Part shown: piece after piece, positions 14,940-55,460 of the stretch
Layout: every line of letters starts with the position of its first letter
How positions within the stretch are numbered: position 1 is the first letter of the stretch
NCBI GenBank assembly: GCA_903822495.1
Contig: CAIJPD010000043.1
Coordinates: 46-64,045 of the forward strand
Origin: an uncultured Chloroflexota bacterium
GTDB lineage: Bacteria > Chloroflexota > Limnocylindria > Limnocylindrales > CSP1-4
Direction of reading: 5' to 3'
DNA length: 64,000 bases
Program-made: the position numbers and the translations under genes
Notes under the pieces: model-generated
Databases searched by the model: none
Told to the model about the DNA's origin: nothing
What the model saw: the letters and a program-made list of their open reading frames with translations, nothing else

Positions 14940-14976
14940 GCACCCCGGTCCCGTCCAGGGCCCGCAAGGCGACGCC

Positions 14977-16741: not shown

Positions 16742-17797
16742 TCAGCCGGCCAGCGTCCCCGGGACCACGCGGCCCTGCGCGTCGAGCGTCGCCTGCCGGC
16801 GCAGCGCCTTCAGCTCCGCGCCCGGCACCTGGCCTCGCGCGTGGTACGAGGAGCGGACCAGCGGCCCCGACTCCACGTGCCTGAATCCCATTGCCAGCGC
16901 CTCCGCCTTCATCTCCGCGAACTCGTCGGGGTGGTAGTAGCGCTCCACCGGGAGGTGGGCCGGCGTCGGCCGCAGGTACTGGCCGATGGTCAGGATGTCG
17001 CAGTCGACCTCGCGGAGGGCCAGGAACGCCTCGCTCATCTCGGGACGCGTCTCGCCCAGGCCCACCATGAGCGAGCTCTTGGTATGGGCCACGCGACCCA
17101 GCTCGGCGGCGTAGACCTTGGCGCGGGAGAGGACGCCCAGCGTCCGGTCCCAGCGGGCGCGCTTGCGGACCGGCTTCTGCAACCGGCGTACCGTCTCCAG
17201 GTTGTGATTGAGGATGTCCGGCCCGGCGCTCATCACCTCGCGGAGTGGCGCCTCCTCGCCGTTGAAGTCCGGGATCAGGACCTCGATTCCCATCCCGGGG
17301 CACGCCTCGCGGGACAGGCGGATGGTCTCGGCGAACGCGTGGGCGCCCCCGTCCGGAAGGTCATCGCGGGCGACGGACGTGACCACCACGTGCTCGAGGC
17401 CAAGGTTGCGGAGTGCCTCGGCCACGCGCCGCGGCTCGTCGTCGTCGAACCAGGTGGGCCGGCCGGTCTTGATGGCGCAGAAGCCACAGGCGCGGGTGCA
17501 GGTGTCGCCCAGGATCATGATGGTGGCCGTGCGCTCGTCCCAGCACTCCCCGATGTTGGGGCAGCGTGCCTCCTCGCACACGGTGTTGAGGTTGAGGCCG
17601 GCCAACAGGCCCTTCATGTCGCGGTAGCTGTCGCCACCGGGCAGCTTCGCCTTGATCCAGTCCGGATGACGGCGGACCACCGCGTCGCCGCCCGGCATTC
17701 CGGCCCCGCCCATCGCGATGCTCAGCGGCTGGTACGGCTCATGGCCGTGCCCGCCGGCGTGCCCGCCCGGCTGGAGGATGGGAAGGTCGCGTGCCAT
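16742..17797 (-). CDS. lipA: Lipoyl synthase
   Basis: CEEARCPNIGEC (auxiliary cluster), CTRACGFC (radical SAM) and VRSSY. Confidence 0.96.
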   Translation of the reverse strand: MARDLPILQPGGHAGGHGHEPYQPLSIAMGGAGMPGGDAVVRRHPDWIKAKLPGGDSYRDMKGLLAGLNLNTVCEEARCPNIGECWDERTATIMILGDTCTRACGFCAIKTGRPTWFDDDEPRRVAEALRNLGLEHVVVTSVARDDLPDGGAHAFAETIRLSREACPGMGIEVLIPDFNGEEAPLREVMSAGPDILNHNLETVRRLQKPVRKRARWDRTLGVLSRAKVYAAELGRVAHTKSSLMVGLGETRPEMSEAFLALREVDCDILTIGQYLRPTPAHLPVERYYHPDEFAEMKAEALAMGFRHVESGPLVRSSYHARGQVPGAELKALRRQATLDAQGRVVPGTLAG

Positions 17798-17863
17798 CGG
17801 TGGTTCGTTGCCCCCTGGTTGGATCGCTGACGCTGGCGGCCGGTGCCTGCCTGCCGGCGACGC

Positions 17864-19216
17864 CTAGTAGATGGGGGTGTCCGGACCCACGGCCTCGAGC
17901 CAGGCCTTGACGTCACCCATGAACCGCCCGACCTGGGCGCCATCCGTGGCGCGATGGTCGAAGACCACCGGCACGTTCATCATGGAGCGGATCGCGATCA
18001 CGTCACCCCGCGAGGTCTCCAGGACCACCGGCCGCTTCACGATCGCCTCGAGATTGACGATGGCAATCTCCGGCGTGTTGATGATGCTGCTGCTGAAGAC
18101 GGAGCCAAACGACCCGGTGTTGTTGACCGTGATGGTCCCGCCCTGCAGGTCGGCCAGGCGAAGCTTGTTGGAGCGGGCGCGCTCGGCGAGGTCCACCACC
18201 GCGCGGTTCAGGCCGCTGATCGAGAGCTGGTCCGCATCCTGGATCACCGGGACGATCAGTCCGTCGTCGACCGCGATGGCGATACCGACATTGACGCGCC
18301 GCTTCACCAGGAGCCCGCCCTCCGTCCAATGCGCGTTGATCCGGGGATGGCGGCGGAGTGCCTCCACCACGGCCTTGATGACGAACGGCACATAGCTGAG
18401 GTTCGCGCCTTCGCGGGCGCGGAACGCCGACTTGTTGGCTTCGCGAAGCGCCACCAGGCCAGTGACGTCCACCTCGACCATGGTCCCGGCGTGCGGGACG
18501 GTGCCCTTGCTCCGGGCCATGGCCGTGGCCACGCCCTTGCGCATCTGCGACCAGGCGATCAGCTGCTCGTTCTCGCCGGCGGCGAATGTCACCGGGGCGC
18601 CGGGCTGGGAGGCCGGGCGGGACGAAGACGGCGCGGGAGCGGGGGCGGCCGCCATTGGTGCGGCGGGGGCCGGGGCGGCGGGCAGCGAACCGGTGGCGCG
18701 GGCGGCCAGGTAGGCCTCGACGTCGTCGCGGGTGAGGCGGCCGCCTCCGCCGGTAGCAGTGATCTGCTCGGGCGACAGGCCGTTCTCGCGCAGGAGGCGA
18801 CGCACGGCGGGGCTCATGCGGGCGTCGGGATCGCCGGCGGCGGCCGCCGCGGCCGCGGCGGTGCTCGCCATGGCCGCGGGGGCTGGGGCTGCGGGGGCCG
18901 GGACGAGCGCGGCTGCGATCGGCGTGATCGGCACGAATGGCGCTGGTGCCGCCGGGATTGGGGCAGGAGCCGTGGCGCCGGCGGCCTCCTCGATCTCCGC
19001 GATCTCCGCGTTGTTCGGGACCGTCTCGCCTTCCTGGACCAGGATGGCGGTGAGCGTGCCCTCGAACGGCGACGGGACCTCGGCGTTGACCTTGTCGGTG
19101 ATGACCTCCAGCAGCGCCTCGTACTTGGCTACGTGATCACCGGGCTTCTTGAGCCACTTCCCGATTGTCCCCTCGGCCACGCTCTCGCCGAGCTGGGGCA
19201 TCGTCACCTTGGCCAC
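17864..19216 (-). CDS. 2-oxoacid dehydrogenase E2 (dihydrolipoamide acyltransferase, BkdB-like)
   Basis: GTG start with AGGAGG RBS; lipoyl domain VITDKVNAE, E3-binding SPAVRRL...GGRLTRDDV and catalytic DHRATDG. Confidence 0.93.
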   Translation of the reverse strand: MAKVTMPQLGESVAEGTIGKWLKKPGDHVAKYEALLEVITDKVNAEVPSPFEGTLTAILVQEGETVPNNAEIAEIEEAAGATAPAPIPAAPAPFVPITPIAAALVPAPAAPAPAAMASTAAAAAAAAGDPDARMSPAVRRLLRENGLSPEQITATGGGGRLTRDDVEAYLAARATGSLPAAPAPAAPMAAAPAPAPSSSRPASQPGAPVTFAAGENEQLIAWSQMRKGVATAMARSKGTVPHAGTMVEVDVTGLVALREANKSAFRAREGANLSYVPFVIKAVVEALRRHPRINAHWTEGGLLVKRRVNVGIAIAVDDGLIVPVIQDADQLSISGLNRAVVDLAERARSNKLRLADLQGGTITVNNTGSFGSVFSSSIINTPEIAIVNLEAIVKRPVVLETSRGDVIAIRSMMNVPVVFDHRATDGAQVGRFMGDVKAWLEAVGPDTPIY

Positions 19217-19356
19217 GAAGAGACCTCCTGGGCGGATCGAACCTGCTGCTGGCGGCCGGGCCGGGCCCGGCGCCTCGTTGCGCGTAGTGTCGCCCATCCC
19301 CCGCCACTCCGCCAGCGCGACTCATCGAGGCGGGCCGCCCACCAGCATGACGCTCG

Positions 19357-19737
19357 TCAGCGCCCGCGCTTTGCCAGCTGCGGCGCGACGATCTCGCGAT
19401 GTCGGGCCAGGACCGTGGCGGCCAGCGCGTCCAGCTCCGCGAGGAGGCGCTCGTCGACGGTGCTGAAGTTGAAGCACGACTTGCCCTGCATCCGCTTTGC
19501 GAGCTCGGGTGAGATCGAGGCCAGCAACTCCGGTCGCGCGTAGACGGTCATGAGGTAGAAACTGACGTAGCGCTTGCCCAGGCGGGTGCCCGCGACGAAG
19601 CCCCAGGGCTTGCCCACCGCCTCCGGCAGCTCAAGGACCGTGCCACTGTCGCCCTCCCGACTGGCGAACGACCCGCCGTGCCTGCGGAGGATCGCCCGCA
19701 GTCGCTCGTGGACATCCGGCAGGTCGGCTCCCGGCAT
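19357..19737 (-). CDS. Hypothetical protein, DUF1801/YdhG-like
   Basis: GKRYVSFYLM...KRMQGKSCFNF pattern. Confidence 0.7.
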   Translation of the reverse strand: MPGADLPDVHERLRAILRRHGGSFASREGDSGTVLELPEAVGKPWGFVAGTRLGKRYVSFYLMTVYARPELLASISPELAKRMQGKSCFNFSTVDERLLAELDALAATVLARHREIVAPQLAKRGR

Positions 19738-19800
19738 GGGACGCGCTCCTCTCTGCTGCAGGCCCCGGTGAAGAACCCCGGCCGATGATCGCCGTCGCGG

Positions 19801-19834
19801 AGAACACGAAGCCGGGCGCCAATGGCGCCCGGCT
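19801..19834 (-). terminator. Intrinsic terminator closing the NRPS/PKS operon
   Basis: Inverted repeat AGCCGGGCGCCA-A-TGGCGCCCGGCT (19810-19834), followed on the minus strand by TCGTGTTCT. Confidence 0.65.
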
Positions 19835-19885
19835 CCTGGTATCGCGCTACGCAGGTGCTGTCATCAGCACCGATGGGAACGTCGG

Positions 19886-20434
19886 TCAGAAGGGACCGTA
19901 GATGTAGTTCTCGGCGGCGTCGGGGTCCTCGCTGAACCAGAACGCCGCGCTGACCGCGATGACCTCCTCGCGACTGAGGAAGCCGTCGCCGTCCGTGTCG
20001 AACTTGGCGAAGTTGCCGGCCACGTCAACGTTCTTGTAGCCGTATGCCGCGATTCCGGCGTCGTACTCCCGGAGGGAGACCTTGCCGTCGTTGTCCGTGT
20101 CGAGGACGTCGACCAGGGCGCTGATGTACTTCTCGAGGGGGAACGCGCCGCCGCCGGCGCCCGCGGCGTCGTCGAGCGACGTCTGCCAGGCCGTCCATTC
20201 AGACGCGCTCACCCGTCCGTCGCGGCTGGTGTCGGCATGCTCGCGGATCTGGTTCCAGAGGGCGGTGGTCTCCGAGTCGAGCTTGGCCTTGCCGGCGGCG
20301 TCGATGGCCCCGGCCGCTGCCAGGCTGTCGGAGAAGCGGAGGTAGTCGGCGTGATCGATGAATCCATCTCCGTCGACGTCGTAGGCATCGAACAGGTGAG
20401 CGACCTTGCGGGCTCGAAACTCCGAGAGTGCCAT
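19886..20434 (-). CDS. EF-hand calcium-binding protein (calerythrin/SCP-like)
   Basis: Four loops: DVDGDGFIDHAD, DTSRDGRVSASE, DTDNDGKVSLRE and DTDGDGFLSREE. C-terminal YIYGPF; GGGAG RBS. Confidence 0.9.
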   Translation of the reverse strand: MALSEFRARKVAHLFDAYDVDGDGFIDHADYLRFSDSLAAAGAIDAAGKAKLDSETTALWNQIREHADTSRDGRVSASEWTAWQTSLDDAAGAGGGAFPLEKYISALVDVLDTDNDGKVSLREYDAGIAAYGYKNVDVAGNFAKFDTDGDGFLSREEVIAVSAAFWFSEDPDAAENYIYGPF

Positions 20435-20510
20435 GAGGTCTCCCTGCGGTGCGGCGATACTGACGAGTCGCCAATGGCCGCAGTGTATCCGGAACGCCCG
20501 GTGACCCTGA

Positions 20511-21308
20511 TCAACCGGCCGCAAGCGTCATGTCAACGCCGTCCACCGACGACGGCTTGCCGGGTCCCTCCCAGCGAACCACGCGCCAGCCCGAGACCAC
20601 CGCGCCACGCACGGCGACCGCCGCGTGGTAGCCGCGGTCCGGCCGGAACGCCACGCACCACCAGCGGCCCTGTCCCTCGGGCGCACGCATGGCCAGCAAC
20701 TCGGCGGCGCCGGACGGATCGAGTCGGACGTCGAAGGCGTCGAGGGGCAGCTGGAGGCCCACCCCGATCGCCTTGACGACCGCCTCCTTGCGCGTCCACG
20801 CCGCCAGGAAACCGTCCAGGCGGTCCCCAGCGCACAGGCTCGCGAGCTGGTCCTGCTCGGCTGCGGAGAGCACCCGCCTCGCCAAGGCATCCAGGTCCGG
20901 GATCGGCCGGCGGAGCTCGATGTCCACGCCCACGTCGCCCGCGGCTGCGACGCCCACCAGCGCGAGCTCGCCACCGTGGGCGAGGTTGAAGGACGGAGGC
21001 ACGGGCGACAGGCCTTCCGCCAGGAACGGCTTGCCCTGGGGACCCGACTCGAATGCCAGCGCCTCGAGCGGGATGCCGGTGTAGCGCGAAAGGATGTCGC
21101 GGAGGGCGGCGTGGGCCACGATGTGGCGCCTCCGGTCTGCCTCGAAGGCGAACCGATTCGCGGCCGCCAGCTCGGTCGCATCGAGCAGGCCGGCCAGGCC
21201 GGCCACCTGGTCATCGGGCAGGTCGAGCGCGACCAGCCAGGCGTGCAGCTGGGTGTGGACCGGCGAAGCGCTGGACGAAGGGGTGGCGGGTGCCCGGTCT
21301 GGCGTCAC
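20511..21308 (-). CDS. Sfp-type 4'-phosphopantetheinyl transferase
   Basis: GPQGKP, FNLAH, VGVDIE and WTRKEAVVKAIG. Confidence 0.94.
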   Translation of the reverse strand: MTPDRAPATPSSSASPVHTQLHAWLVALDLPDDQVAGLAGLLDATELAAANRFAFEADRRRHIVAHAALRDILSRYTGIPLEALAFESGPQGKPFLAEGLSPVPPSFNLAHGGELALVGVAAAGDVGVDIELRRPIPDLDALARRVLSAAEQDQLASLCAGDRLDGFLAAWTRKEAVVKAIGVGLQLPLDAFDVRLDPSGAAELLAMRAPEGQGRWWCVAFRPDRGYHAAVAVRGAVVSGWRVVRWEGPGKPSSVDGVDMTLAAG

Positions 21309-22078
21309 GGCCCGCCGGCAGTCAGCCAGGGCGCGAGGTCACGCGCGATGGACGAGATCAGGAACGGCCGTGCTGACCGGACGAACAGGTGGTCGCCGGG
21401 GACCATCCGGCAGACAAACCGGCCGGTCGAGTGCGATCGCCAGGCCTCCAGTTCGGCGGGCAGCACCGTGGGGTCGTCGGTCCCGCCGAACGTTGAGATC
21501 GGGCACGCGAGCGGAGCCCCGGCCGCAAACGTGTACGTCTCCAGGATAGTCAGGTCGGCCCGCAGAGCCGGCAGGAGGAGGGCCCGGAGCTCGGCGTCGG
21601 CGGCGATCTCCGGGGGAATGGACCCGTAGCGGCGCTGGACGGCCGCAAGCAGCGCGAGGTCGGGCAGCCGATGCAGCTCGTCGCCGGCCGCGCGATGGTC
21701 GGGCGCGGGTGCGGCACCCGCGAACAGGTGGATCGGCATCGGGCCGCCCACCTCGCGCAGGGCCCGGACGAGCTCGAACGCGACGAGTGCCCCCATGCTG
21801 TGGCCATACACGGCAAATGGGCGGTCCAGGTAGGGGAGCAGCCGCGGCAGCAGGTTCGCCACGAGGTCGGCCATGCTCGTCACCGGTGCCTCGCGGAGGC
21901 GTCCCTCGCGGCCCGGCAGCGCCACGAGCCCCGCCTCGAGGCCCGCCGGGAGGTCGGTCAGCCAGGAGCGGTAGGCCGATGGGCCGCCGCCGGCGTGCGG
22001 GATCAGCACCAGTCGGCAACGGGGGTGCGGGTCGAGCCGCGGGCGAAGGACCCACGGACCCGGCAGCGAGTCGCTCAC
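21305..22078 (-). CDS. Standalone (type II-like) thioesterase
   Basis: PHAGG, LPGRE, GHSMG and PGDHLF. Confidence 0.94.
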   Translation of the reverse strand: MSDSLPGPWVLRPRLDPHPRCRLVLIPHAGGGPSAYRSWLTDLPAGLEAGLVALPGREGRLREAPVTSMADLVANLLPRLLPYLDRPFAVYGHSMGALVAFELVRALREVGGPMPIHLFAGAAPAPDHRAAGDELHRLPDLALLAAVQRRYGSIPPEIAADAELRALLLPALRADLTILETYTFAAGAPLACPISTFGGTDDPTVLPAELEAWRSHSTGRFVCRMVPGDHLFVRSARPFLISSIARDLAPWLTAGGP

Positions 22079-25000
22079 TCGGACGATGGTTCGGTGGCGC
22101 CGGCGGCACGGCTCTCCCCCACCGCGCGGGTCTCATGCGCGGAGAGCAGCCCCGCGACCGTCCGCCGCGCGAACACCACGTTGGCCAGGCCGTTGATCGT
22201 CGGATCCTCGAACATCGCCGCCAGCGAGACGTCCGTCTCCAGCACCTTGCGCAGGCGCGACACGACCTGGGTCGCCAGCAGCGAGTGGCCGCCGAGGTCG
22301 TAGAAGTTGTCGTAGACGCCGATGGGTTCGATCCCCAGCATCTCCTGCCAGACGGCGGCGATCGCCTCCTCCGTGGGATTGCGTGGCGCCACGTAGGAGC
22401 GGGCCAGGGCGGGCCGCGCCTTGGCCTCGGGCGGGGCCTCCTCCCGTGGCCCTCGGACGGTCGCCAGCTGGACCCAGGTCCGGTAGCGCGCCTGGAGGTC
22501 CGTCGCGGAGATGGCCACCTGCGGGGCGTGGACGCCGAACAATCGCCCGAAGCAGGCCAGGCCCTCCTCGCGCGTGATCGCCGTGGGCATGATCCGCTCG
22601 ACGAGGTTGTCGCGGATCAGGGTCATGATCCGTTCGTCGAGGGTCCACTCGAGGCGCCACGAGTCCCAGCTCTGGACCTGCCAGTCCCGGCCCGCCCGGC
22701 GGCCGCTCCACTGGGCAAACGTGGCCATGAACGCGCTGGCCGCCCCGAACGACACGTACCCGACGCCCCCGAGGACCGACCCCAGAGAGCCCAGCGCGAG
22801 CCGCAGGTCCAGGTCCCGGTCCGCGGTGACGCTGTCGATCGCCAGCAGCCCGTGGGCCACAGCCACCAGGTTGCGCTCGCATTCCGCGGCGCCGCTGTCC
22901 GTGATGGTGTTGATGCGGCCCGCCGAGGACCCCGCGGCCGCATGAATGACGCCCCGGAGCGGGCCGTGCCTCCGTTCCGCCGCCTGGATCGCGGAGGCGA
23001 TCGAGGCGGGCTGGTCCAGGCCGCATCCGACCACCTCCAGGGCCACGCCATGGTCCATGAGGACCTGGGCAGCCCGGACCCTGAGGCTCACGATGTGTTG
23101 AGGATCGTTCTCGGCGAGCCAGCGATCCCAGCGATCCCGGGGCGGCATGCTCGCGTCCTCGATGAAGAGGAGGGGCGTTCGCCAGGTGTCGGCGATGTGT
23201 TCCGCGAGGGCGAGGCCGATCCCGACCAGCCCACCCGACACGAGCAGGAGGCCACCCTCCCGGATTGGCGCCGGGGGCGCGGCCTCGACCCGGATCGGCT
23301 CGTACGTCTGGACCCACCGGTGCGGGCCACGGAACGCGACGACCATGTCGTGGTCGACCACCGCGAGCTCCGCTACGAGGGATCCCACGAGCACCTCGGG
23401 CCGGGGCATGGCCGCCGGGTCCAGGTCGATCAGGCGGCAGGAGACGTTGTGATACTCCTGCTGGATCACCTTCGCCTGGCCGACCAGCGTCCCGGGCTCG
23501 GGCCGCAACGGCTCCGCGCCCGTGATGTCGTGGAGCCCCGCCGTGAGCGACGTGATGGTGATGGGCATGGTGATGTTGTGGCGACCCAGCGCACGCACGA
23601 GGTGGAGGACGGGATAGAACGAGCGCGCCTGAAAGGCGCGGAACGAGGCGATGTCCGGGGCCTGGTCCGGCGCCACCTCCACCCCGAGCGTCCAGCCCGC
23701 GATGACATGATCCGGCACCAGTCCCGAAGCCAGCAGGTCGCCGACCAGCGCGTTGTAGCCGGCCGGCGCCGCCGGATCCAGCGTCCAGGACCGGTCACCA
23801 TCCCTGTGGAACGCGGCCCCCACGGCGACGCGAACCACGGCGTCCCCCGCCTCCGCGAGTCGCGTGGCCACGGCATCGACGACTGGATCGTCGGCCAGCA
23901 CCAGCCAGGTCCGCGGCGGAACCGCCGTCCCCGGGGTGGCTGGGACCGGCGGGAGGATTCGCCGCCAGGACGGCACCGAGAACCAGTCCGCGATGTCCGG
24001 CCGCTTGCGCCCGGCGATGGCGCCGGGCAGGTCACCGGCGCCGAGGACCCCGTCGCGGTCGCGCGCGCCCGGGTCGGCGGTATCACCCGGTGACACCCAG
24101 TGGCGCTCGCGCTGGAACGGGTACGTCGGCAGCGGTACTCGCCGGCCCCCAGCCCGGCCGTCCGCGGCGACGACGCTGATGGCCGCGCCGGCCGTCCACA
24201 GCCGCGCCGCGGCCTCGCGGAGCTGCTCCAGCTCACCCGGCCCGCGATCGGTGGCCCCCATCGCCGCGACGGCCAGGGATTCGCGGCGGTGCTGGCGGAC
24301 GAACGTCCCGAGGGCGCGCCCGGGGCCTACCTCCAGAAAGACGGCGTCGGGCTCGGCTCGAAGCACGGTCTCGATCCCCGGGCCGAAATGCACCGGCGCC
24401 CGGAGCTGGCGGCCCCAGTACGCCGGATCGATCGCCGCTTCGTCCTGCAGCCAATCGCCGGTCAGGTTGGAGATGACACGCACGGCTGGCAGGTGGCGGG
24501 GCACGGCCGCCACGGCGGCGCTGAACGGGGCAACCGCACCGTCCATGAGCGCCGAGTGGAACGCGTGCGACGTGCGCAGGGGTCGATTGCCCACGCCATC
24601 GGCGTCGAGCCTGGCCCGCAGCGCGTCGATCGCCATCGCAGGGCCTGACACCACGCACAGGTCCGGGGCATTGAGCGCGGCGACGGTCAGCGAGGGCGCC
24701 AGGTCCGACTCCAGCTGGGCGGCCGGGAGGGCGACGGAGAGCATCGAGCCGGGAGGCTGCGACTGCATGAGCCGCCCGCGCTCCACCACCAGCCGCAACG
24801 CGTCGTCCGCGCTGAACACGCCGGCGACGCACGCCGCGACCAGCTCCCCCACGCTGTGGCCCAGCAGCACATCCGGGCGGAGGCCCCAGGCCTCCAGCTG
24901 GCGGGTGAGCGCCAGCTCGATGGCGAAGAGCACGGGCTGCGTCAGCCTGGTCTGGGCCAGCGCCTCGCCGGCAGCCACGGCATCCTCGCCGGTAGCGAAG

Positions 25001-26825: not shown

Positions 26826-26829
<4 letters not shown>
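22075..26829 (-). CDS. Type I PKS: KS-AT(malonyl)-KR(probably inactive)-ACP
   Basis: KS DKDY...VQTACSTS, HGTGT, NIGH; AT GHSVG and HAFH; KR GGLVGIG with GYVSFGAAS (catalytic Tyr absent); ACP LGGHSL. Confidence 0.92.
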
Positions 26830-32766
<5,937 letters not shown>

Positions 32767-32774
<8 letters not shown>

Positions 32775-43202: not shown

Positions 43203-46200
43203 GACGGCGAGCCTCCCTGGCGTCCCTTGCGCCGTGCCTCGAGTCGGGCCCCCGCGCTGGCCCGGCCCGCCGTCCGCAGGACCGCCCGGTCCGGCGCCGC
43301 CGCGGCGTGCCCCGCCGGGTCCCCGTCGCCGGCGTCCAGGTAGGCGGCGAGCGACTCGATGGTGGGATGCTCGAACAGGGCGGCGATGGGAATGCGCCGG
43401 CCCAGCCGCGTCTCGATCACGCCGCGGACCTGGACCAGCAGGAGCGAATGCCCCCCGAGCTCAAAGACGTTGTCCTTGAGCCCGACGCGTTCTACCCCGA
43501 GGATCTCGGCCCAGGTTGCGGCGAGGAAGGACGCCGTCGCAGACGCCGTGGCGGGGGCCGTGGACGCCGGGCCGGGCGCCCGGCCCGCCGGGCCGGTGGC
43601 ATTCGGCGGTACGGTGGGCGAGACCACGCGAGGATCGGGCAGCGATTGCCGATCCACCTTGCCGTGGGCCGTCAAGGGCAGGGCGTCGAGGAACGTCCAC
43701 GATGCCGGCACCATCGCCTCGGGCAGACGGCTCGCGACCACTCGTCGCAGCTCGGCCGCGGCCAGCGCCGTGCCCGCGCGAGCCACCACGTACGCCGCCA
43801 GCCGAGTGTCCCCCGGCCTGGCGGTGAACGCGGTCACGACGACCTCCGCCACGTCGGGATGGGCACGGACCGCAGCCTCCACCTCCGCGGGCTCGATGCG
43901 CACGCCGCGGACCTTGACCTGGTGGTCGGCCCGGCCATGGTGCTCCAGCGTCCCGTCCGCGCGCCAGCGGGCCAGGTCGCCTGTACGGTAGATGCGAGCG
44001 CCCGGCGCCATCGAGAACGGGTCGGGTCCGAACGCCACGGCGTCGAGGTCCGGACGGCCAAGGTAGCCGCGCGCGACCCCGGCCCCCCCGATCCAGAGCT
44101 CGCCCGTCACGCCGACCGGCACCGGGCGGCCGTCGTCATCCACCACATACACCCGGGTGTTGTCGATGGGGCGGCCGATGGAGATGGGTTCGTCGCGTTC
44201 CACTCGACCCATGGTGGACCAGATCGTCGTCTCGGTCGGTCCGTAGACGTTCCACAGGGTTCCCACCCGCTCGAGGAGCCGATCCGCCAGCTCTCGGTCC
44301 AGCGCCTCGCCGCCGCTCAGCGCGACCAGGCCAGGGTCGCCCCGCCAGCCGCTCTCGACCAGGAGCCTCCACGTGGCGGGGGTGGCCTGCACGATGGTCG
44401 CCCGAGAGCGTCGCAGAAGCGTGGCGAGGCGTTCCGCGTCGGCGGCGTCGGCCCGGCCCACGAGGACCACCCGCGCGCCGGACACCCAGGGCACCAGCAA
44501 CTCCAGGACCGCGATGTCGAAGGTGACTGGCGTCACCGCCGCGAGGCGGTCACCGGGACCCACGCCGAGGCGACGAGCCATCGCGGCGACCAGGTTCACC
44601 ACCGCCCGCTGGGTCACCTGCACGCCCTTGGGCTGCCCGGTCGATCCGGAGGTGTAGATCGCGTAGGCCAGCTGGTCGGCGGTGACCAATGGAGCCCGGA
44701 CGGGACCCGGCGCCGGACGGAGGGCCAGATCCGGTGCCCCGGACGGGACCCCGTGGCACAGGTCCCCCAGGTCGTCCAGCTCGTCCACCAGGATCACGCG
44801 GACGCCGTCCGGGGCGGCGATCCCCGCCGACGACCAGGTCGCGCGGTCCGATACGACCACGGTCGCTCCCGTGTCGGCCAGCAGCCAGCGAATCCGATCC
44901 GCGGGCCACCCCGGATCGAGGGGAAGCCAGGCCGCGCCGGCGCGAACGATCCCGAGGAGGGCGACCGCCAGGTCCGACGTGCGGCCCAGGAACAGTCCTG
45001 CCAGCGTGTCCGGACCGACCCCCTCGGCGACGAGCGCCCGGGCCACGGCGGCGGCGCGCGTCCACAGCTCGTCGTACGTCGCCTCCGTGCCGTCGACGTC
45101 GAGCGCGACCCGTTCCCCGTGTCGCTCGAAGGCTTCGCCGAGGATAGCGCGCAGCGTCGTCGGGTCAGGCAGCCGGACGTCCGTCGCGTTGACCCCGACG
45201 ACCAGCCGCGCCTGCTCCGCGTCATCGAGGAGGCGCAGGGCTCCCACCGGCGCGCCTGGCCGATCGACGATGTCCTCGAGGAGCACGGACCAGTGGCGGG
45301 CCAGCCGCGCCACTCGTTCAGCGCCAAACAGCGCGGTGTCGTACTTGATCCAGCCGACGATCGACCGTTGACCCTCCACCAGCTCGAGCGCAAGGTCGAA
45401 CTGACCCTCCTGCTGGGGCAGCGCGACGGGCTCAAGCAGCAGGTCCGCCCAGCGCGCGCCGGTGGACACTGGGCTCGGCGCCAGCAGCTCGGCGAGCGGA
45501 CTCCCGGGGCCATCCGCCAGGGGCTGGTGGAGTGAGAACAGGACGTCGAACAGCGGCGAACGGCTCACATCCCTTGGCAGGCGCAGTCGCTCGACCAGGT
45601 GCGCGAAGGGCAGGTCCTGGTGGGCGAGCGCTCCGTGGACCCGGTCGCGGACCCGCGCGAGATGCTCGACGAATGTCTGGTCTCCGCTGACGTCCGCGAG
45701 CACCGCGACCGGGTTGACCAGGTACCCCACCAGGCCGGCAGCGGCAGGCCGGGTTCGGCCCGACGTCAGGGCGCCAACGGCGAAGGCGTCCTGCCCCGCG
45801 TACCGGGCGAGCAGGACCTGGAAGGCGGCGAGGAGAAGCGTGTGCAGCGACACGCCCTGGTGGCGCGCGAGCCGCCGGAGCCGCTCGGTGATTGCGGCCG
45901 GCAGCTCAATCCGCTGCGAGGCCCCCGTGAACGCGCGAACTGGCGGCCGAGGCGCATCCGCCGGCAGGTCGAGCACCGGGGGCGGGACGGCGAGCGCCCG
46001 GGACCAGTAGTCCCAGTCACGTTCGGCGGCCGGTGCCCCCAGGCGATCCGCCTCCCCGCGAGCCCAGCCGAGGAAGGAGGGACCGGGGGCCGGCAGGGTC
46101 CGCCCGGCGTACAGGCGCTCCAGCTCCTCCATCATCAGCACCAGCGAGGCATAGTCGCCGGCGAGGTGGTGCATCACCAGGAGCAGGACCGCCCGGTCGG

Positions 46201-48643
46201 GTCCAACCTCCACGAGCCAGGCGCGCGCGATGGGGCCCCGCTCCAGGTCGAAGGGCCGACGGACCTCGGCAGCCAGCCGGGCAGCCAGCTCGGCCTCTCC
46301 CCAGGCCGCGCCGTCGACGACCGCGAAGGCGCCAGGGTCGACCGGACCCGGCACCTGCTGGGGGCGGCCCTGCTCGTCGAGGTACCGCATCCGGAGTGCG
46401 TCGTGGCGGGCGAGGAGCGCCAGGAACGCCGCCCGCAACCCATCCGGCGACGGTGCGGGCAGCATCCGGACCGCCCCGGCGAGATGGTAGGCGTCGGTCT
46501 CGGGGGCCAGGCTCTGGAGGAACCAGAGCGCGGCCTGTCCGTGTGTGAGCGGGCCGGCCGCGTCGTCCAGGGCGGTCGCTGACGCCACGTCGCCGGCCGC
46601 CGGGCGCGCCACAACCTCCGGCCCGGTTCCGGCGCCGGCCAGGGCGGCGGCGAACGCCTGGATCGATGGCGCCTCCCAGAACAGGGCCGCCGGCACCCGC
46701 CGTCCCAATGCCCCCTCGAGCTCGAATGCGACCCGCGTCAGGGCGAGAGAGTCGAGTCCGTAGGCGAAGAAGGGCCGGTCATCCTGCACCTCGTCCGTGT
46801 CCAGTCCGGCGGCGACCGCGATTCGATTCCGCAGCCACCGGGCGACCTCCGGTGCGCCCGCGGCCGCGCCCAGGGCGGGCGATTCGCTGGTGGCCACGGG
46901 CACCGGCGCCCGCCAGTCCGCGATGACCGCCAGGCCGCCCTCGGCCAGGGCAGTGCGCGTCGTGCTGCGGCGCAGCTTGCCGCTCGACGTCCTCGGCAAC
47001 GTCCCGGGGCGCAGCAGCACGAGGCGCTCCAGCGACACCTCGTGGTCCGCGGCGACGGCCGCCCGCACGGCCTCCGCGATGGCGTCGACCGGCGTGGAGC
47101 CGACGACGTGGCGATCCACCTCCGCGACAAGCACCAGCCGCTCGCCGGACGGCTCGCCGGCCGCGCCCCCCACCGCGAACGCGGTGCTCGAGCCTGGCCG
47201 AATCGCCGGGTGCGAACCCTCGGCAGATGCCTCGATGTCCTGCGGGTACAGGTTCCGTCCCCTGATGATGATCAGGTCCTTGAGGCGTCCCGTGATGTAC
47301 AACTCACCGTCGTGCAGGAACCCCAGGTCCCCGGTGCGCAGGAACGTCCGCGTGGGGTGTCCTGCCAGCGTGGCGCCGAACGTGGCCCGCGTCTCGTCCG
47401 GCTGCCCCCAGTACCCCTGTGCGACGCTGGGCCCGGCGACCCAGACCTCGCCAACGGCCCCCGGAGCGCGGCCCACGCCGCTGTCGGGGTCGACGACCTC
47501 CACGAACGTGCCGGGGACGGGCCGCCCGCAGCTCACCAGGGGCACCGTCGATTCGGACGACGGCGCCGCGACGCCACGACCCTCGCGGAGAGCCTCCCGA
47601 TCCACGTCGAGCACCCGCGCACCCGAGCCGCGCACGCTGCCCGTGACGATGAGCGTCGTCTCGGCCATTCCGTAGCACACGTCGAAGGCGTCCGGGCGGA
47701 AGCCGTGCGGCCCGAATGTCCGCGCGAATCGCTCCAACGTCTCCGCGCGGACCGGCTCGGCGCCGTTGTAGGCGACCGTCCAGCAGCTGAGGTCCAACGC
47801 CGCGCGTTGCTCCGGGGTCACCTGGCGCAGGCACAGCTCGTAGGCGAAATTGGGTGCCCCGCTGGTTTGGGCCCGGTAGCGCGAGATGGCGCTCAGCCAT
47901 CGAAACGGCTCCTGGAGGAAGGCGACCGGCGCCATGAACACGCTCAGCGACCCCTGGTAGAGGGGTTGGATCGTGTCTCCGATGAGGCCCGTGTCGTGGT
48001 AGCGCGGCAGCCAGCTGACGACCGTGGAGTCGGCCGAATGGCCGAAGGTTGCCGCGATCTGGCGCTGGTTGGCGAGGACATTGGCGTGGCTGACCATGAC
48101 GCCGCGCGGAGTGCCGGTGGACCCCGACGTGAATTGGAGGAAGGCGAGGTCGTGAGCGGCGATCGCGGGGGGTCGCCACTCCCCCGCCTCGGCCGAGCCC
48201 ATCACGGTCGTGTCGATCAGGCCGACGCCCCCGAGGGAGGTTGACGATGCGCTACCGCCGAGCTTTGCGAGGATCGAGGCGGTGGCGAGGGCGAAACGCG
48301 GGGTGGCCGCGGCCACAATCGCGGCAAACCGGGGGTCCGGCTTGTTCAGCTTGGGCGGGTAGACCGGGACCGCCACCACGCCGGCATACAGGCAGCCAAA
48401 GAACGCCGCGATGAAGTCCAGGCCGGCGGGATACAGGAGGAGCGCCCGCTCGCCCGGCAGGCTCTCCCGCTGGAGCCGCGCCGCGATCGCCCGCGCCTGG
48501 CGGTCCAGCTCTCCGTAGCTGATGGAGGCGGCCTCCTCCACGCCATCCGCCAGGAAGATATAGGCGGTCCGGTCCGGATCTCGTGCAGCCCGCCAGCGCA
48601 GGAGCTCGGTGAGGTTCGGGGCGTCCGGTGACATGGTCTGCAT
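43199..48643 (-). CDS. Lipo-initiating NRPS: FAAL-ACP-C-A(Gly)-PCP
   Basis: FAAL FLQFTSGSTG, CYGMAE, RTSSGK; ACP YGLDSL; C domain HHLAGD; A domain YTSGSTG, YGPTETTIW, YRTGD; PCP LGGHSL. Confidence 0.94.
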   Translation of the reverse strand: MQTMSPDAPNLTELLRWRAARDPDRTAYIFLADGVEEAASISYGELDRQARAIAARLQRESLPGERALLLYPAGLDFIAAFFGCLYAGVVAVPVYPPKLNKPDPRFAAIVAAATPRFALATASILAKLGGSASSTSLGGVGLIDTTVMGSAEAGEWRPPAIAAHDLAFLQFTSGSTGTPRGVMVSHANVLANQRQIAATFGHSADSTVVSWLPRYHDTGLIGDTIQPLYQGSLSVFMAPVAFLQEPFRWLSAISRYRAQTSGAPNFAYELCLRQVTPEQRAALDLSCWTVAYNGAEPVRAETLERFARTFGPHGFRPDAFDVCYGMAETTLIVTGSVRGSGARVLDVDREALREGRGVAAPSSESTVPLVSCGRPVPGTFVEVVDPDSGVGRAPGAVGEVWVAGPSVAQGYWGQPDETRATFGATLAGHPTRTFLRTGDLGFLHDGELYITGRLKDLIIIRGRNLYPQDIEASAEGSHPAIRPGSSTAFAVGGAAGEPSGERLVLVAEVDRHVVGSTPVDAIAEAVRAAVAADHEVSLERLVLLRPGTLPRTSSGKLRRSTTRTALAEGGLAVIADWRAPVPVATSESPALGAAAGAPEVARWLRNRIAVAAGLDTDEVQDDRPFFAYGLDSLALTRVAFELEGALGRRVPAALFWEAPSIQAFAAALAGAGTGPEVVARPAAGDVASATALDDAAGPLTHGQAALWFLQSLAPETDAYHLAGAVRMLPAPSPDGLRAAFLALLARHDALRMRYLDEQGRPQQVPGPVDPGAFAVVDGAAWGEAELAARLAAEVRRPFDLERGPIARAWLVEVGPDRAVLLLVMHHLAGDYASLVLMMEELERLYAGRTLPAPGPSFLGWARGEADRLGAPAAERDWDYWSRALAVPPPVLDLPADAPRPPVRAFTGASQRIELPAAITERLRRLARHQGVSLHTLLLAAFQVLLARYAGQDAFAVGALTSGRTRPAAAGLVGYLVNPVAVLADVSGDQTFVEHLARVRDRVHGALAHQDLPFAHLVERLRLPRDVSRSPLFDVLFSLHQPLADGPGSPLAELLAPSPVSTGARWADLLLEPVALPQQEGQFDLALELVEGQRSIVGWIKYDTALFGAERVARLARHWSVLLEDIVDRPGAPVGALRLLDDAEQARLVVGVNATDVRLPDPTTLRAILGEAFERHGERVALDVDGTEATYDELWTRAAAVARALVAEGVGPDTLAGLFLGRTSDLAVALLGIVRAGAAWLPLDPGWPADRIRWLLADTGATVVVSDRATWSSAGIAAPDGVRVILVDELDDLGDLCHGVPSGAPDLALRPAPGPVRAPLVTADQLAYAIYTSGSTGQPKGVQVTQRAVVNLVAAMARRLGVGPGDRLAAVTPVTFDIAVLELLVPWVSGARVVLVGRADAADAERLATLLRRSRATIVQATPATWRLLVESGWRGDPGLVALSGGEALDRELADRLLERVGTLWNVYGPTETTIWSTMGRVERDEPISIGRPIDNTRVYVVDDDGRPVPVGVTGELWIGGAGVARGYLGRPDLDAVAFGPDPFSMAPGARIYRTGDLARWRADGTLEHHGRADHQVKVRGVRIEPAEVEAAVRAHPDVAEVVVTAFTARPGDTRLAAYVVARAGTALAAAELRRVVASRLPEAMVPASWTFLDALPLTAHGKVDRQSLPDPRVVSPTVPPNATGPAGRAPGPASTAPATASATASFLAATWAEILGVERVGLKDNVFELGGHSLLLVQVRGVIETRLGRRIPIAALFEHPTIESLAAYLDAGDGDPAGHAAAAPDRAVLRTAGRASAGARLEARRKGRQGGSPS

Positions 48644-48792
48644 GCGGGCCTGTAGCGGGACAACGTCGAGGCCGGGTCATGATAGGCGCCGGGCATGGGA
48701 CCGCTGGTCGAGCGACGTCCGACACGGAATCCACGCCCACGTAGCCGACGCGGAGCCTGCCGGCAGGGCGCACCCAAGGCGGCACGGCCCGC

Positions 48793-49776
48793 CTAGTACG
48801 CAGCCAGCTTGCGGATCCCTGCCGCGATCTTGTCCGGGTTGACCATGAACCAGTCCTCCAGGACGTGGCTGTATGGCACCCCGGGTACGTCTGGGCCGGC
48901 GATGCGCGTCACCGGCGCGTCGAGGTAGTCGAACACCTCCTCGGCCACCAGCGCCGCGATCTCCGCGCCGTAGCCGCCGAACCGGTTGTCCTCGTAGGCG
49001 ATCAGGCACTTGCCGGTCTTGCGGACCGAGTTCAGGACCGTCTCGGTGTCGAGCGGGCGGAGCGTCCGCAGGTCGATCACCTCGACGCTGATCCCCTCCT
49101 CGGCCACGCGGGCGGCGGCCTCAAGCGCGTGATGGGCCATCAGCCCATAGGCGATGACCGTCACCTGCGTCCCGGCCCGCGTAATGGCCGCGGAGCCCAG
49201 CGGCGTCACGTAGTCGGTGTCCGGCACCTCGCCCCGGACGGAGCGGTAGAGCTTCTTGTGTTCCAGGAAGAGCACCGGATCAGGGTCGCGGATCGCCGAG
49301 CGGAGCAGCCCGCGGGCATCCAGCGGCGTCGACGGCACCACCACCTTGATCCCCGGGATGTGCGTGAAGAACGCCTCAACGGACTGGCTGTGGTACAGCG
49401 CGCCGTGCACCCCGCCGCCGTACGGGGTGCGGATCACCATGGGCAGCCCCACGGCGTTGTTGGTCCGGTAGCGCATCCGGGCGGCCTGCGACTGGATCTG
49501 GTTGAACGCCGGGAAGATGAAGTCGGCGAACTGGATCTCCGCGACGGGCCGTAGCCCGTTGATTGCGGCGCCGATGCTGACGCCCACGATCATCGATTCG
49601 GTCAGCGGCGTGTCGATGACGCGCGCCTCGCCGAACTCGGCCTGCAGGCCGTCCGTCGCCAGGAAGACGCCGCCCTTGAGCCCCACGTCCTCGCCCAGCA
49701 CGATGATCGACGGGTCGCGCCGCATCTCCTGGGCCAGCGTCGTGCGGATCGCCTCGATGAAGGTGCGGACGGCCAT
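48793..49776 (-). CDS. 2-oxoacid dehydrogenase E1 beta (BkdAB-like)
   Basis: GEDVG...GGVF, DTPLTE, EIQFADF and GALYHSQ. Confidence 0.95.
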   Translation of the reverse strand: MAVRTFIEAIRTTLAQEMRRDPSIIVLGEDVGLKGGVFLATDGLQAEFGEARVIDTPLTESMIVGVSIGAAINGLRPVAEIQFADFIFPAFNQIQSQAARMRYRTNNAVGLPMVIRTPYGGGVHGALYHSQSVEAFFTHIPGIKVVVPSTPLDARGLLRSAIRDPDPVLFLEHKKLYRSVRGEVPDTDYVTPLGSAAITRAGTQVTVIAYGLMAHHALEAAARVAEEGISVEVIDLRTLRPLDTETVLNSVRKTGKCLIAYEDNRFGGYGAEIAALVAEEVFDYLDAPVTRIAGPDVPGVPYSHVLEDWFMVNPDKIAAGIRKLAAY

Positions 49777-50876
49777 CAGTCGCGCCCCGTCCCATCGCCC
49801 CAGGCGGGTGGGCGCTCGCCGGGCCAGTCCTCGGCGAAGACCCAGCTCGAGGCCGACTCCAGGGTGGGGTCGGCCGCGGCCTCGGCGAAGCGCGTCGCGT
49901 CCTCGACCGCCTCCCCGATCTCGGCGGCCATGGCGGCCTCGGCCTCCGCCGTGAGCACCCCGGCCGCGCGAAGCTGCCCGCGGAAGGCCGGCAGCGGGTC
50001 CAGGGCGCGATGCGCGGCGATCTCCTCCTCGCTCCGGTAGCGGGTCTGCTGGTCGTCCGACGAATGGGCCGTGAGGCGCTCCACCTTGGCCTCGATCAGG
50101 GTGGGCCCCTCCCCGGCCCGGGCGCGCCGCACGGCCTCCCTGGCGGCCACGTAGCAGCCCACGACATCCGTCCCGCGGACGATCACGCCCGGGATCCCGA
50201 ACGCGGCCGCACGCGCCGCGACGTCGTCGACCGGCAGCTCACGCGCGGACGGCACGCTGATCGCGTAGCCGTTGTTCTCGACGACGTAGACGAACGGCAG
50301 CCGGTGGATGGCGGCGAAGTTCAGCGCCTCGTGGACATCCCCCTGGTTGGAGGACCCCTCGCCCGTCGAGGTGACCACCACCTCCCCCGTCCCCCGAAGC
50401 TTCGCCGCCAGGGCGATCCCAACGGCGTGGAGCACCTGCGACGCGACCGGCGAGCTGACCGACAGGATCTTCCGCCCGATGTGGCCGTAGTGGTTGGGCA
50501 TCTGGCGACCGCCCGACGACGGGTCATCGGCGCGCGCGTAGGACCCCAGAAGGATCTCGCGCGGGGTCAGCCCCATCCGGAGGACGGCCGTGATGGACCG
50601 GTAGTACGGGGCCAGCCAGTCCTCGCCCGGGCGGAGCGCCCAGGTGATGCCGGCCTGGGCGCCCTCGTGGCCCTGGCCGCTGATGACAAACGCCACGCGC
50701 CCGGAGCGGTTGAGGATCCACATGCGCTCGTCGAGGGCGCGTCCCAGGGCCATCACGCGGTAGAGGCCCAGCAGGTCGTCCCGCGTCAGCCCGGCGGATG
50801 CCGCGACACCCAGCCAGCGCGCCCCCGGTTCGCCCGGCGCCGCCAGGTCGCCCGGCTGGTTTGCGGAGACGTCCAT
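49776..50876 (-). CDS. 2-oxoacid dehydrogenase E1 alpha (BkdAA-like)
   Basis: SGQGHEGAQ, PYYR, SGGRQMPNH, TPP motif GEGSSNQG...ENNGYAIS and AHSSDD. Start trimmed from the over-extended ORF. Confidence 0.93.
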   Translation of the reverse strand: MDVSANQPGDLAAPGEPGARWLGVAASAGLTRDDLLGLYRVMALGRALDERMWILNRSGRVAFVISGQGHEGAQAGITWALRPGEDWLAPYYRSITAVLRMGLTPREILLGSYARADDPSSGGRQMPNHYGHIGRKILSVSSPVASQVLHAVGIALAAKLRGTGEVVVTSTGEGSSNQGDVHEALNFAAIHRLPFVYVVENNGYAISVPSARELPVDDVAARAAAFGIPGVIVRGTDVVGCYVAAREAVRRARAGEGPTLIEAKVERLTAHSSDDQQTRYRSEEEIAAHRALDPLPAFRGQLRAAGVLTAEAEAAMAAEIGEAVEDATRFAEAAADPTLESASSWVFAEDWPGERPPAWGDGTGRD

Positions 50877-50902
50877 TCGCGGTTCGGCGCCTCCGTGGGC
50901 CG

Positions 50903-52342
50903 TCAGAAGTTGATCGACCGGCCGTCGACCGCCATCGCCGCCTCGCCGAGGATCTCGGACAGGGTGGGATGGGCGTGGGTGGTGTTGCCGATCTCCCAGG
51001 CCGTGGCGTCCAGCGTGAACGCCAGGGACGCCTCGGCGATCAGGTCCGTCGCGTGCGGGCCGATGATGTGGACCCCCAGCGTGTCGCCCGTCTCCGGGTT
51101 GCTGATGATCTTGGCGAAGCCCTCGTACTCGCCGCCGATGATCGCCTTGCCGATCGCCTGGAAGGGCACCTTGCCCACCTTGTACGGCAGGGACTGGGCG
51201 CGGCACTGCTCCTCGGTTCGGCCGATGGACGCAATCTCGGGGTGGCAGTACGTGGCGCGCGGCTGGGCGTTGTAGTCGAAGCCGTGGACGTCCGGGTCGC
51301 CAACGATCGTATGGACGGCGGTCAGGCCCTCGTGCGCCGCGACGTGCGCCAGCCAGAGCCCGCCCACGATGTCGCCGATCGCGTAGACGTGCGGCTCCCT
51401 GGTGCGCATGTGTGCGTCCACCTTGATCACGCCGCGCTCCGTCTCGATCCGCGTGGTCTCGAGGCCGATGTTCTCGATGTTCGCCGCCCGGCCGATCGCG
51501 ACCAGGAGGAGGTCGAACGACAGCTCCTTGGCCTCCCCGCCTTCGGGACCGACCGTGATCCGAACGGAGTCCTCGTCCGAACGAACCCCCGCGACATCGA
51601 AGCGGGCATTGGTCATGACGGTGATGCCGCGCTTGGTGAAGCTGCGCACGAGCGCGGCGCTGACATCGTCGTCCTCGAGTGGCACGATGGCGGGCAGGTA
51701 TTCGATGAGCGTCACCTTGACGCCCATGTCGTGGAAGAACGAGGCGAACTCCACGCCGACCGCGCCGGCACCCACGATGGCGATGGAGGCCGGCAGCGTC
51801 TCCAGGCGGAGGATGTCGTCGGAGGTGACGATCCGGCGGCCATCCGGGACCAGCCCCGGCAGGCTCCTGGTCCGCGAGCCCGTGGCCAGGATGACGTCCG
51901 TGGCTTCCAGGATCCGCTCGCCGCCGGCACCCGGCGTCCCGTCCTCGCCCGCGAGCGTGACGACCACCTTGCCCGGCCCGTCGAGGCGGCCGCGGCCCTG
52001 GACCCACGTCACCTTGTTCTTGGTGACCAGCGACTTGAGGCCGGTCCACATCCGCTTCACGACCTGGTCGCGCCGGGCCGCGATCTTGGCGAAGTCCGCG
52101 ACGGGTTCACCCACCGTGATGCCCAGGTCGGCCGCGTGGCGGATCCGGTCGGCCAGCGCCGCGGATTCCAGCAGCGCCTTGGTGGGGATGCAGCCCCGAT
52201 GGAGGCATGTCCCGCCGATCTTGTCCTCGTCGACAAGGGCCACGCGGAGACCCAGCTGGGCGGCCCGGAAGGCCGCGCTGTAGCCGCCCGTGCCCGCACC
52301 GAGCACGACGAGATCGAAGTCGTTGGACGAACCGGCGGCCAT
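50903..52342 (-). CDS. lpdA: Dihydrolipoyl dehydrogenase (E3)
   Basis: GAGTGG, GGTCLHRGCIP, GAGAVG and HAHPTLSE. Confidence 0.95.
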   Translation of the reverse strand: MAAGSSNDFDLVVLGAGTGGYSAAFRAAQLGLRVALVDEDKIGGTCLHRGCIPTKALLESAALADRIRHAADLGITVGEPVADFAKIAARRDQVVKRMWTGLKSLVTKNKVTWVQGRGRLDGPGKVVVTLAGEDGTPGAGGERILEATDVILATGSRTRSLPGLVPDGRRIVTSDDILRLETLPASIAIVGAGAVGVEFASFFHDMGVKVTLIEYLPAIVPLEDDDVSAALVRSFTKRGITVMTNARFDVAGVRSDEDSVRITVGPEGGEAKELSFDLLLVAIGRAANIENIGLETTRIETERGVIKVDAHMRTREPHVYAIGDIVGGLWLAHVAAHEGLTAVHTIVGDPDVHGFDYNAQPRATYCHPEIASIGRTEEQCRAQSLPYKVGKVPFQAIGKAIIGGEYEGFAKIISNPETGDTLGVHIIGPHATDLIAEASLAFTLDATAWEIGNTTHAHPTLSEILGEAAMAVDGRSINF

Positions 52343-53228: not shown

Positions 53229-53329
53229 GGTTCGGCGGGCGCCGCGTGGTGAGTCCACGCACGGTCACCGCATCCGGGCCGGCGCACCCGCAGGTGACGG
53301 CCCACGACGACAGTGGGGACGGCGAGCGC

Positions 53330-55454: not shown

Positions 55455-55460
55455 GGTACG

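Follow-up and report, generated by a model that had tools for sequence, protein, structure and literature searches.

A hybrid assembly-line gene cluster in a variable spacer of a 2-oxoacid dehydrogenase locus from an uncultured Limnocylindrales bacterium

Introduction

How did a secondary-metabolite gene cluster come to stand between the E1-beta and E2 genes of a 2-oxoacid dehydrogenase locus, and does this position tell anything about its function? The question is raised by a stretch of 64,000 nucleotides (the window, taken at its full length) from an uncultured Chloroflexota bacterium of the order Limnocylindrales, family CSP1-4 (assembly GCA_903822495.1, contig CAIJPD010000043.1, positions 46 to 64,045 of the forward strand). 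Its source is a metagenome-assembled genome (MAG) of 3.61 Mb in 68 contigs, 89.7% complete and with a guanine-plus-cytosine (GC) content of about 72%, and the sequencing runs that contain the window sequence are lake-water metagenomes. On the minus strand the genes follow one another in the order E3, E1-alpha, E1-beta, a 149-nt spacer, eight cluster genes, an open reading frame (ORF) of 126 aa, E2 and lipA (Table 1).

The original prediction on this locus took the cluster to split a branched-chain-type operon whose E1-beta and E2 genes are normally contiguous, and offered two explanations: a neutral insertion without mobility genes, or a co-option in which, through read-through from the bkd promoter, the supply of branched primers would be coupled to the fatty acyl-AMP ligase (FAAL) at the start of the assembly line. 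The reference for such an operon is the bkd operon of Bacillus subtilis, with the order ptb-bcd-buk-lpdV-bkdAA-bkdAB-bkdB. From the comparisons described below, it is likely that the segment 19752-48786 is a species-specific, horizontally acquired and self-contained hybrid assembly-line cluster, lodged in a permissive and recurrently variable accessory-gene site.

Results

A 29.0-kb segment missing from a same-genus genome

The limits of the inserted segment were set against the same-genus genome G001, in which E1-beta and E2 are both 95% identical to those of the window. Two blocks of a single G001 locus (L021) are collinear with the window by blastn, 9202-16001 with window positions 48787-55585 and 8541-8860 with 19433-19751, and between them 29,035 bp in the window are replaced by 342 bp in G001. 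Homology stops at the E1-beta stop codon and restarts 14 nt ahead of the ATG of the small 126-aa ORF, at its ribosome-binding site. The distance from E1-beta to E2 amounts to 29.6 kb in the window versus 1.57 kb in G001, whose gap contains no remnants of cluster genes; no FAAL match at E <=1e-40 was found in this genome, which is 90% complete. The cluster had been correctly placed between E1-beta and E2; the first estimate, about 29.5 kb for the cluster together with the DUF1801-like gene, is replaced by this comparison with an inserted segment of 29.0 kb.

A segment of this kind could also belong to another organism and have been wrongly joined during assembly or binning. The source is a MAG in many contigs, and of the two junctions it is the first that independent contigs cover; both flanks are, however, collinear with one and the same G001 stretch, and a chimera would not rejoin the locus it had left. 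In addition, Logan contigs cross position 48787, the junction of E1-beta and FAAL, in four runs drawn from two studies, and differ from the window there at 0-1 positions. Three of these runs, which may include the source sample, belong to the first study (contigs 47372-49185 in X1, 47582-49523 in X2 and 48047-48883 in X3), and the fourth, X5, to the second (48747-49014, 0 differences). Contig depths over cluster and flank are alike both in X1 (4.2-8.2 over the cluster, 6.6-7.2 over junction and flank) and in X2 (5.5-8.4 versus 7.2-8.2). Mapping across both junctions had been proposed with the original prediction, and for this one the independent contigs that bridge it show that the junction is real. 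Overall, an assembly or binning artefact appears extremely improbable.

Other differences from G001 and between strains were observed in the same region. The small ORF and E2 are separated by ~875 bp in G001 (L021 7666-8541) versus 116 bp in the window; the G001 stretch carries two minus-strand ORFs of 150 and 108 aa with coding-like GC content at third codon positions (GC3), and was not found in the genome of the window. Two further window segments, 6326-10069 and 13912-16265, are missing from G001, and comprise a sugar-type ATP-binding cassette (ABC) transporter (SBP_bac_1 and two permeases) and most of an amino-acid ABC transporter (SBP_bac_3, permease and ATPase), so that the window genome shows three insertions versus G001 within ~50 kb. 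In X5, contigs over 49568-53107 (E1-alpha/E3) carry 12-24 differences per 290-540 bases, versus 0-1 in the cluster and junction pieces, so that the cluster-bearing strain seems to be accompanied by a close relative.

The E1-beta/E2 spacer in related genomes

The spacer between E1-beta and E2 is an accessory-gene site across Limnocylindrales, and was so before the cluster arrived. The order E3, E1-alpha, E1-beta, gap, E2, lipA is retained in all 16 family loci, with a gap of <=200 bp in 4, 201-1000 bp in 3, 1-3 kb in 6 and >3 kb in 3 of them (maximum 9449 bp); the 12 loci with more than 200 bp span 0.4-9.4 kb. A wider scan, with flanks limited to 10 kb, took in 80 loci, of which 67 showed an E1-beta identity of at least 73%. 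E2 lies downstream in 55 of these 67, with gaps of <=200 bp in 9, 201-1000 bp in 13, 1-3 kb in 20 and >3 kb in 13 (maximum 8354 bp), while the other 12 have a flank below 9 kb and E2 out of view. The 16-locus set and the wider scan partly overlap (for example, L173 and G014:C24).

The cargo of the gap differs from genome to genome, and most of it is encoded antisense to the dehydrogenase genes. Its commonest form is an opposite-strand pair encoding a HEAT/cNMP-binding protein and an adenylate-cyclase/STAND/TPR protein (G012, G021, L122, L126, L128, L147, L150, L152, L153, L154 and L175; also L031 and L034). Other cargo recognised by Pfam includes AlkZ-like glycosylases (G010, L131, L163, L167), HTH_31 regulators, a response regulator with a lactonase-like protein (G015), an SH3 protein (G006), a sigma factor with a PD40 protein (L122), an amino-acid ABC transporter (L141) and an rve transposase (L167). 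A homologue of the 126-aa ORF stands between E1-beta and E2 in 6 of the 16 and 17 of the 67 loci.

Because E2 is found within 181 bp of E1-beta in 7 of the 13 more distant loci, with E1-beta identities of 60-73% (L183, L188, L190, L192, L193, L194 and L197), the ancestral arrangement was probably contiguous; no E2 was found with this query in the remaining six, four with full and two with short flanks. Within the order, as much as 9.4 kb separates E1-beta from E2 in relatives without the cluster, often with opposite-strand genes in between, so that the cluster widened an existing spacer and split no contiguous operon. The claim that it interrupts a normally contiguous operon is thus contradicted, and with it falls, in the Limnocylindrales lineage, the premise on which the idea of a metabolic coupling rests. 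Given the opposite-strand cargo of these relatives, their E2 and lipA genes would need a promoter of their own, and read-through from E1-beta would come into antisense conflict.

As a side observation, the E1-beta orthologue of L031 (G012; 15605-16587) appears in two pieces, residues 1-213 and 229-327, which suggests a frameshift or an assembly error.

Distribution and composition of the cluster

No PKS (polyketide synthase) match was found at the E1-beta/E2 site in the 16 family loci or in the 80 further ones, and the dehydrogenase locus stands without the cluster in every one of these 16 and 80. Among 150 other family genomes, sampled from 49 genera, a FAAL match at E <=1e-40 was obtained in a single one, with 45% identity and at a distance of ~530 kb from the dehydrogenase locus of that genome. 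Proteins that join FAAL to a non-ribosomal peptide synthetase (NRPS) were sought more widely, in 185,579 species genomes and JGI metagenome contigs, and the relatives retrieved belong to many phyla, with best-segment identities of 29-48% and top single-domain identities of 51% for the FAAL and 57% for the ketosynthase (KS). Neither an FkbH unit nor E1 or E2 genes occur in the 78 genome loci of these relatives, in flanks of up to 10 kb per side. Within the source genome itself, tblastn revealed no second PKS/NRPS and no second Sfp-type phosphopantetheinyl transferase (PPTase).

Composition also sets the segment apart. At 74.0%, the GC content of the cluster lies above that of any of the 172 29-kb windows of the genome (maximum 73.8%), and 6 of these windows are farther than the cluster from the genome mean in tetranucleotide distance. 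By contrast with the 0.93-0.95 of E1-beta, E3 and lipA, GC3 is 0.87-0.91 in the cluster genes.

These data bear on the alternative of an ancestral presence of the cluster at this site, followed by its loss from G001 and all other relatives. The site is variable and deletions do occur in it, and the lack of mobility signatures described below would fit such a history. Many independent clean losses would nevertheless be needed, since none of the related loci carries a PKS match, the only FAAL homologue among the other family genomes is distant and lies elsewhere, and G001 keeps no remnants; the GC content of the cluster, the highest in the genome, also weighs against this alternative. We therefore consider ancestral presence very unlikely.

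As regards the wider phylum, the excerpted text of PMC10608941 reports an excess of NRPS/PKS clusters for Ktedonobacteria only, and Limnocylindria appear in that excerpt without a named over- or under-represented feature.

Genes and modules of the segment

The segment contains a FAAL, carrier domains, condensation (C) and adenylation (A) domains, modules with KS and acyltransferase (AT) domains, a release enzyme and a PPTase, which together define a FAAL-primed hybrid NRPS-PKS. Profile matches place the genes named in the original prediction on the minus strand, all of them at or within a few codons of the limits proposed there.

Table 1. Features of the dehydrogenase locus and of the inserted segment, in window coordinates. 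ACP and PCP, acyl and peptidyl carrier protein; DH, dehydratase; KR, ketoreductase.
Feature	Position	Strand	Evidence or remark
lipA, lipoyl synthase	16742..17797	-	TIGR00510 349.5 bits (cut-off 310)
E2, dihydrolipoyl acyltransferase	17864..19216	-	Pfam lipoyl, E3_binding, 2-oxoacid_dh
126-aa conserved accessory ORF	19357..19737	-	homologues 3' of E1-beta in many relatives
Inserted segment, 29.0 kb	19752..48786	.	blastn against G001 locus L021 and junction alignments
Terminator-like hairpin, 13-bp, GC-rich, then GUGUUCUCC	19808..19836	-	3' end of inserted segment
EF-hand calcium-binding protein, last gene of inserted segment	19886..20524	-	EF-hand_1, _5, _6, _7
Sfp/HetI-type 4'-phosphopantetheinyl transferase	20511..21308	-	PF01648 and PF22624
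Stand-alone thioesterase	21305..22078	-	PF00975 127 bits
PKS module KS-AT-KR-ACP	22075..26829	-	Pfam
Hybrid module KS-ACP-C-FkbH-ACP	26826..32837	-	Pfam KS, PP-binding x2, Condensation; FkbH by TIGR01686
PKS module KS-AT-KR-ACP	32767..37614	-	Pfam
PKS module KS-AT-DH-KR-ACP	37611..43202	-	Pfam
Loading and NRPS module FAAL-ACP-C-A-PCP	43199..48643	-	Pfam AMP-binding x2, PP-binding x2, Condensation, AMP-binding_C
Spacer, E1-beta stop to FAAL start, 149 nt	48644..48792	-	within inserted segment; unalignable to G001 past stop codon
E1-beta	48793..49776	-	Transket_pyr and Transketolase_C
E1-alpha, heterotetrameric 2-oxoacid dehydrogenase	49776..50876	-	PF00676 264 bits; putative ATG start 50876
E3, dihydrolipoyl dehydrogenase (lpd)	50903..52342	-	TIGR01350 521 bits (cut-off 408.8); Pfam Pyr_redox_2 and Pyr_redox_dim

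Against solved structures, the FAAL part of the first protein scores 589 bits with 7r7e, 454 with 3kxw and 296-322 with FadD32 chains. When aligned, the four KS domains show the catalytic Cys/His/His columns. In the hybrid module, Pfam recognises nothing in the ~640 residues that separate the C domain from the final carrier domain; residues 1260-1900 score 270 bits with the FkbH model TIGR01686 (cut-off 146.65) and 81 bits with the PDB entry 3slr. This predicted KS-ACP-C-FkbH-ACP arrangement is unusual, and suggests that a glycerate-derived unit would be joined by a condensation domain. The AT domain of the last PKS module contains at residue 755 an HAFH motif, which we take to mark it as malonyl-specific. 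The EF-hand gene and the PPTase gene overlap by 14 nt.

The gene downstream of the cluster that had been called DUF1801-like exists as an ORF, the 126-aa one, although the label itself is weak (E 0.026, 15 bits versus a cut-off of 27). For E2, the putative start is the GTG at 19216, preceded by AGGAGG, in a reading frame open to 19297. Elsewhere in the window, a thiamine pyrophosphate (TPP) riboswitch (68 bits; 60967-61074, minus strand) stands upstream of genes for an energy-coupling-factor (ECF)/cobalt-type transporter (60285-60932 and downstream), and a malK-III RNA motif (52 bits; 4871-4971, minus strand) falls inside the first 111 nt of the ORF 3764-4981, predicted to encode a MalK-like ABC ATPase, so that the real start of this ORF may be further downstream.

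Type of the dehydrogenase

The locus had been described as branched-chain-like, and this description is borne out by the E1-alpha scores and the gene order but not by E2. The E1-alpha motifs that had been cited occur in the translation as SSGGRQMPNHYG and TGEGSSNQGD. Ranked by score against solved structures only, without a tree, E1-alpha matches the Thermus protein 1UM9_A with 253 bits, human branched-chain 2-oxoacid dehydrogenase (BCKDH) with 170 and the Geobacillus pyruvate dehydrogenase (PDH) with 162; the E1 of Thermus thermophilus (1UM9/1UMB) is described as branched-chain specific. Although this E1 is the best solved relative of both window subunits, E1-beta does not discriminate, scoring 346 bits with 1UM9_B versus 344 bits with the Geobacillus PDH E1-beta. 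With the model TIGR03181, E1-alpha reaches 292 bits, below the cut-off of 411, and it stays under the cut-off of both NCBIfam PDH E1-alpha models. TIGR03181 is nevertheless the model that it prefers, whereas four other E1-alpha-type sequences scanned from the genome, one of them a fused alpha-beta protein, prefer TIGR03182 (PDH 'y').

The top structure match of the window E2, which carries one lipoyl domain, is 9y7v_D, a 553-aa PDH E2 (339.5 bits), while branched-chain E2 chains reach 95-213 bits (213 for 3mae, 98 for 2ihw, 95-96 for 6zzn and 3l60). The genome also contains two AceE-type E1 genes, without E2 on their contigs, and only three E2 loci, one of them with stop codons; E1o was not found in it. 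The window E2 may consequently serve several E1s, AceE included. Branched-chain-like is then a fair label for the E1, not established for the complex as a whole, and the substrate class remains a prediction.

Regarding the paralogues, the third E2 gene of the genome (C31:114921-115837) is divergent from an E1-alpha/beta pair and has its lipoyl part in another frame, with one TGA and one TAG stop, which points to a frameshift, a pseudogene or an assembly error. At C31:64876-67335 (L118 2877-5336), a fused E1 alpha-beta protein of 819 aa is encoded by a gene that follows E2 and E3 genes in the same orientation.

Transcription signals at the junctions

Simple promoter and terminator scans of the junctions, in the window and in G001, found nothing, and no sigma-70-type promoter was found at either junction, although such a scan says little for a Chloroflexota genome of 72% GC. 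An Rfam scan at gathering thresholds gave nothing near either junction. At the 3' end of the segment, by contrast with the upstream spacer considered below, the 148 nt that follow the EF-hand gene (19738-19885) fold better than expected (z -2.71, 0 of 200 shuffles as good). The terminator-like hairpin of Table 1 was found here by folding, and fails the T-run rule of the simple scanner. The spacer between E1-beta and the small ORF in G001 has no excess structure (z 0.70).

Discussion

The explanation of a neutral insertion without mobility genes, one of the two first put forward, is supported by the absence of the cluster from G001 and from all the related loci and with the lack of mobility signs. 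In this proposal of a horizontally acquired cluster, the cluster would have entered one Limnocylindrales lineage at the spacer between E1-beta and the small ORF, E2 and lipA, probably through recombination between the conserved flanking core genes or through illegitimate recombination. Its transcription would start mainly in the 149-nt region upstream of it and stop at its own hairpin, E2 and lipA would be expressed from a promoter of their own, and the placement would be permissive rather than functional.

Several observations weigh against this proposal. No donor of the cluster was found when genomes and metagenome contigs were scanned with the FAAL-NRPS protein. The deviation in composition is modest, and part of it could stem from the biased amino-acid usage of PKS proteins. 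Pfam detected no integrase or transposase among the 39 window ORFs scanned, no tRNA lies near the insertion (the sole tRNA of the window is at 1190-1266), and no flanking repeats beyond chance were seen, the ends sharing one 10-mer versus 0.37 expected. Of the features by which genomic islands are classically recognised, absence from relatives and atypical composition were found, whereas integrase, tRNA and repeats were not, so that nothing at the site marks how the segment entered. At the level of transcription, the 149-nt gap has no terminator-like site, so that read-through from the lpd-E1 promoter is possible, and no promoter was found in it, the sole sigma-70-like match falling inside E1-beta. 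The original observation that no clear terminator is visible there is sustained by the terminator scan and by folding, since the gap is no more structured than shuffled versions of it (z +0.77), of which 158 of 200 are at least as stable. Finally, the second junction, at 19751, is placed by collinearity with G001 only.

The same features of the gap could be read as a sign of functional co-option, in which the cluster would be transcribed by read-through from the lpd-E1 promoter and the FAAL would be provided with iso/anteiso fatty acids, or E1 and E2 would prime a carrier domain directly. All the genes lie on one strand, and no terminator-like site or excess structure intervenes; likewise, E1-alpha is nearest to the Thermus branched-chain-type E1 and is, relative to the four paralogues scanned, the only one in the genome to prefer TIGR03181. 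In the excerpted text of PMC5384830, PDH- and branched-chain (BKD)-like genes are described within the pepteridine cluster, with N-acyl amides, pristinamycin IIa and naphthyridinomycin cited as well, and a role of such enzymes in priming carrier proteins is proposed for these other pathways. As in clusters of the pepteridine type, the dehydrogenase-type genes of the window adjoin a carrier-protein assembly line; according to that excerpt, however, the dehydrogenase there is part of the cluster, whereas that of the window consists of core genes, which all the cluster-free relatives examined carry at this locus. The association is moreover limited to one species, and the 78 loci of FAAL-NRPS relatives contain no E1 or E2 genes in flanks of up to 10 kb per side. 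The window E2 resembles that of PDH and not BkdB. A FAAL activates free fatty acids and not the short acyl-CoAs produced by BCKDH, so that any link would run only through the whole fatty-acid pool. Co-option seems to us an unlikely explanation. It is equally doubtful that the only assembly line of the genome is under the lpd-E1 promoter, in which case its product, a fatty-acyl peptide-polyketide, would be made by this planktonic bacterium only upon induction of the branched-chain-type dehydrogenase, with E1 and E2 supplying branched precursors or priming the carrier. Taken together, the data do not support the idea of a metabolic coupling.

Several known systems help to situate the locus. Like the Bacillus bkd operon, the window has E3, E1-alpha, E1-beta and E2 in this order on one strand, and an E1 of heterotetrameric type. 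Unlike in Bacillus, other sequence separates E1-beta from E2 in the window and in most Limnocylindrales, E2 is closest to a PDH-type E2 and followed by lipA, and ptb, buk and bcd are missing among the Pfam-scanned ORFs of the window. The actinobacterial AceE/DlaT/Lpd PDH, whose dlaT lies near lipB-lipA, offers another parallel: the window E2 matches 9y7v_D and is next to lipA, and the genome has AceE-type E1s, although the window E2, with its single lipoyl domain, sits downstream of an E1-alpha/beta pair. With FAAL-primed lines (FadD32/Pks13-type loading; 7r7e, 3kxw, 5ey9) the cluster shares an N-terminal FAAL followed by a carrier domain, and it differs from them in its C-FkbH-ACP unit and EF-hand protein and in having no relative found above ~50% identity.

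The proposal of an acquired cluster in a variable site fits best into the general concept of flexible genomic islets between conserved core genes. The flanks are conserved, length and content vary, and the insert is missing from the nearest relative; unlike in such islets, no integrase or tRNA marks the insertion, and one relative (L167) carries an rve transposase in the gap. The case is an accessory biosynthetic island between conserved core genes, and as such of a known kind.

As the sole PKS/NRPS of its genome and without a close relative, the cluster could be a target for heterologous expression, although its practical value is modest. For the biology of the organism, it represents a clean and datable acquisition of a complete secondary-metabolite assembly line by an uncultured freshwater Chloroflexota with a small genome, the empty site being kept in G001. 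For Limnocylindrales as a whole, the boundary between E1-beta and E2 is a recurrent landing site for accessory genes, which calls for caution when function is deduced from adjacency there.

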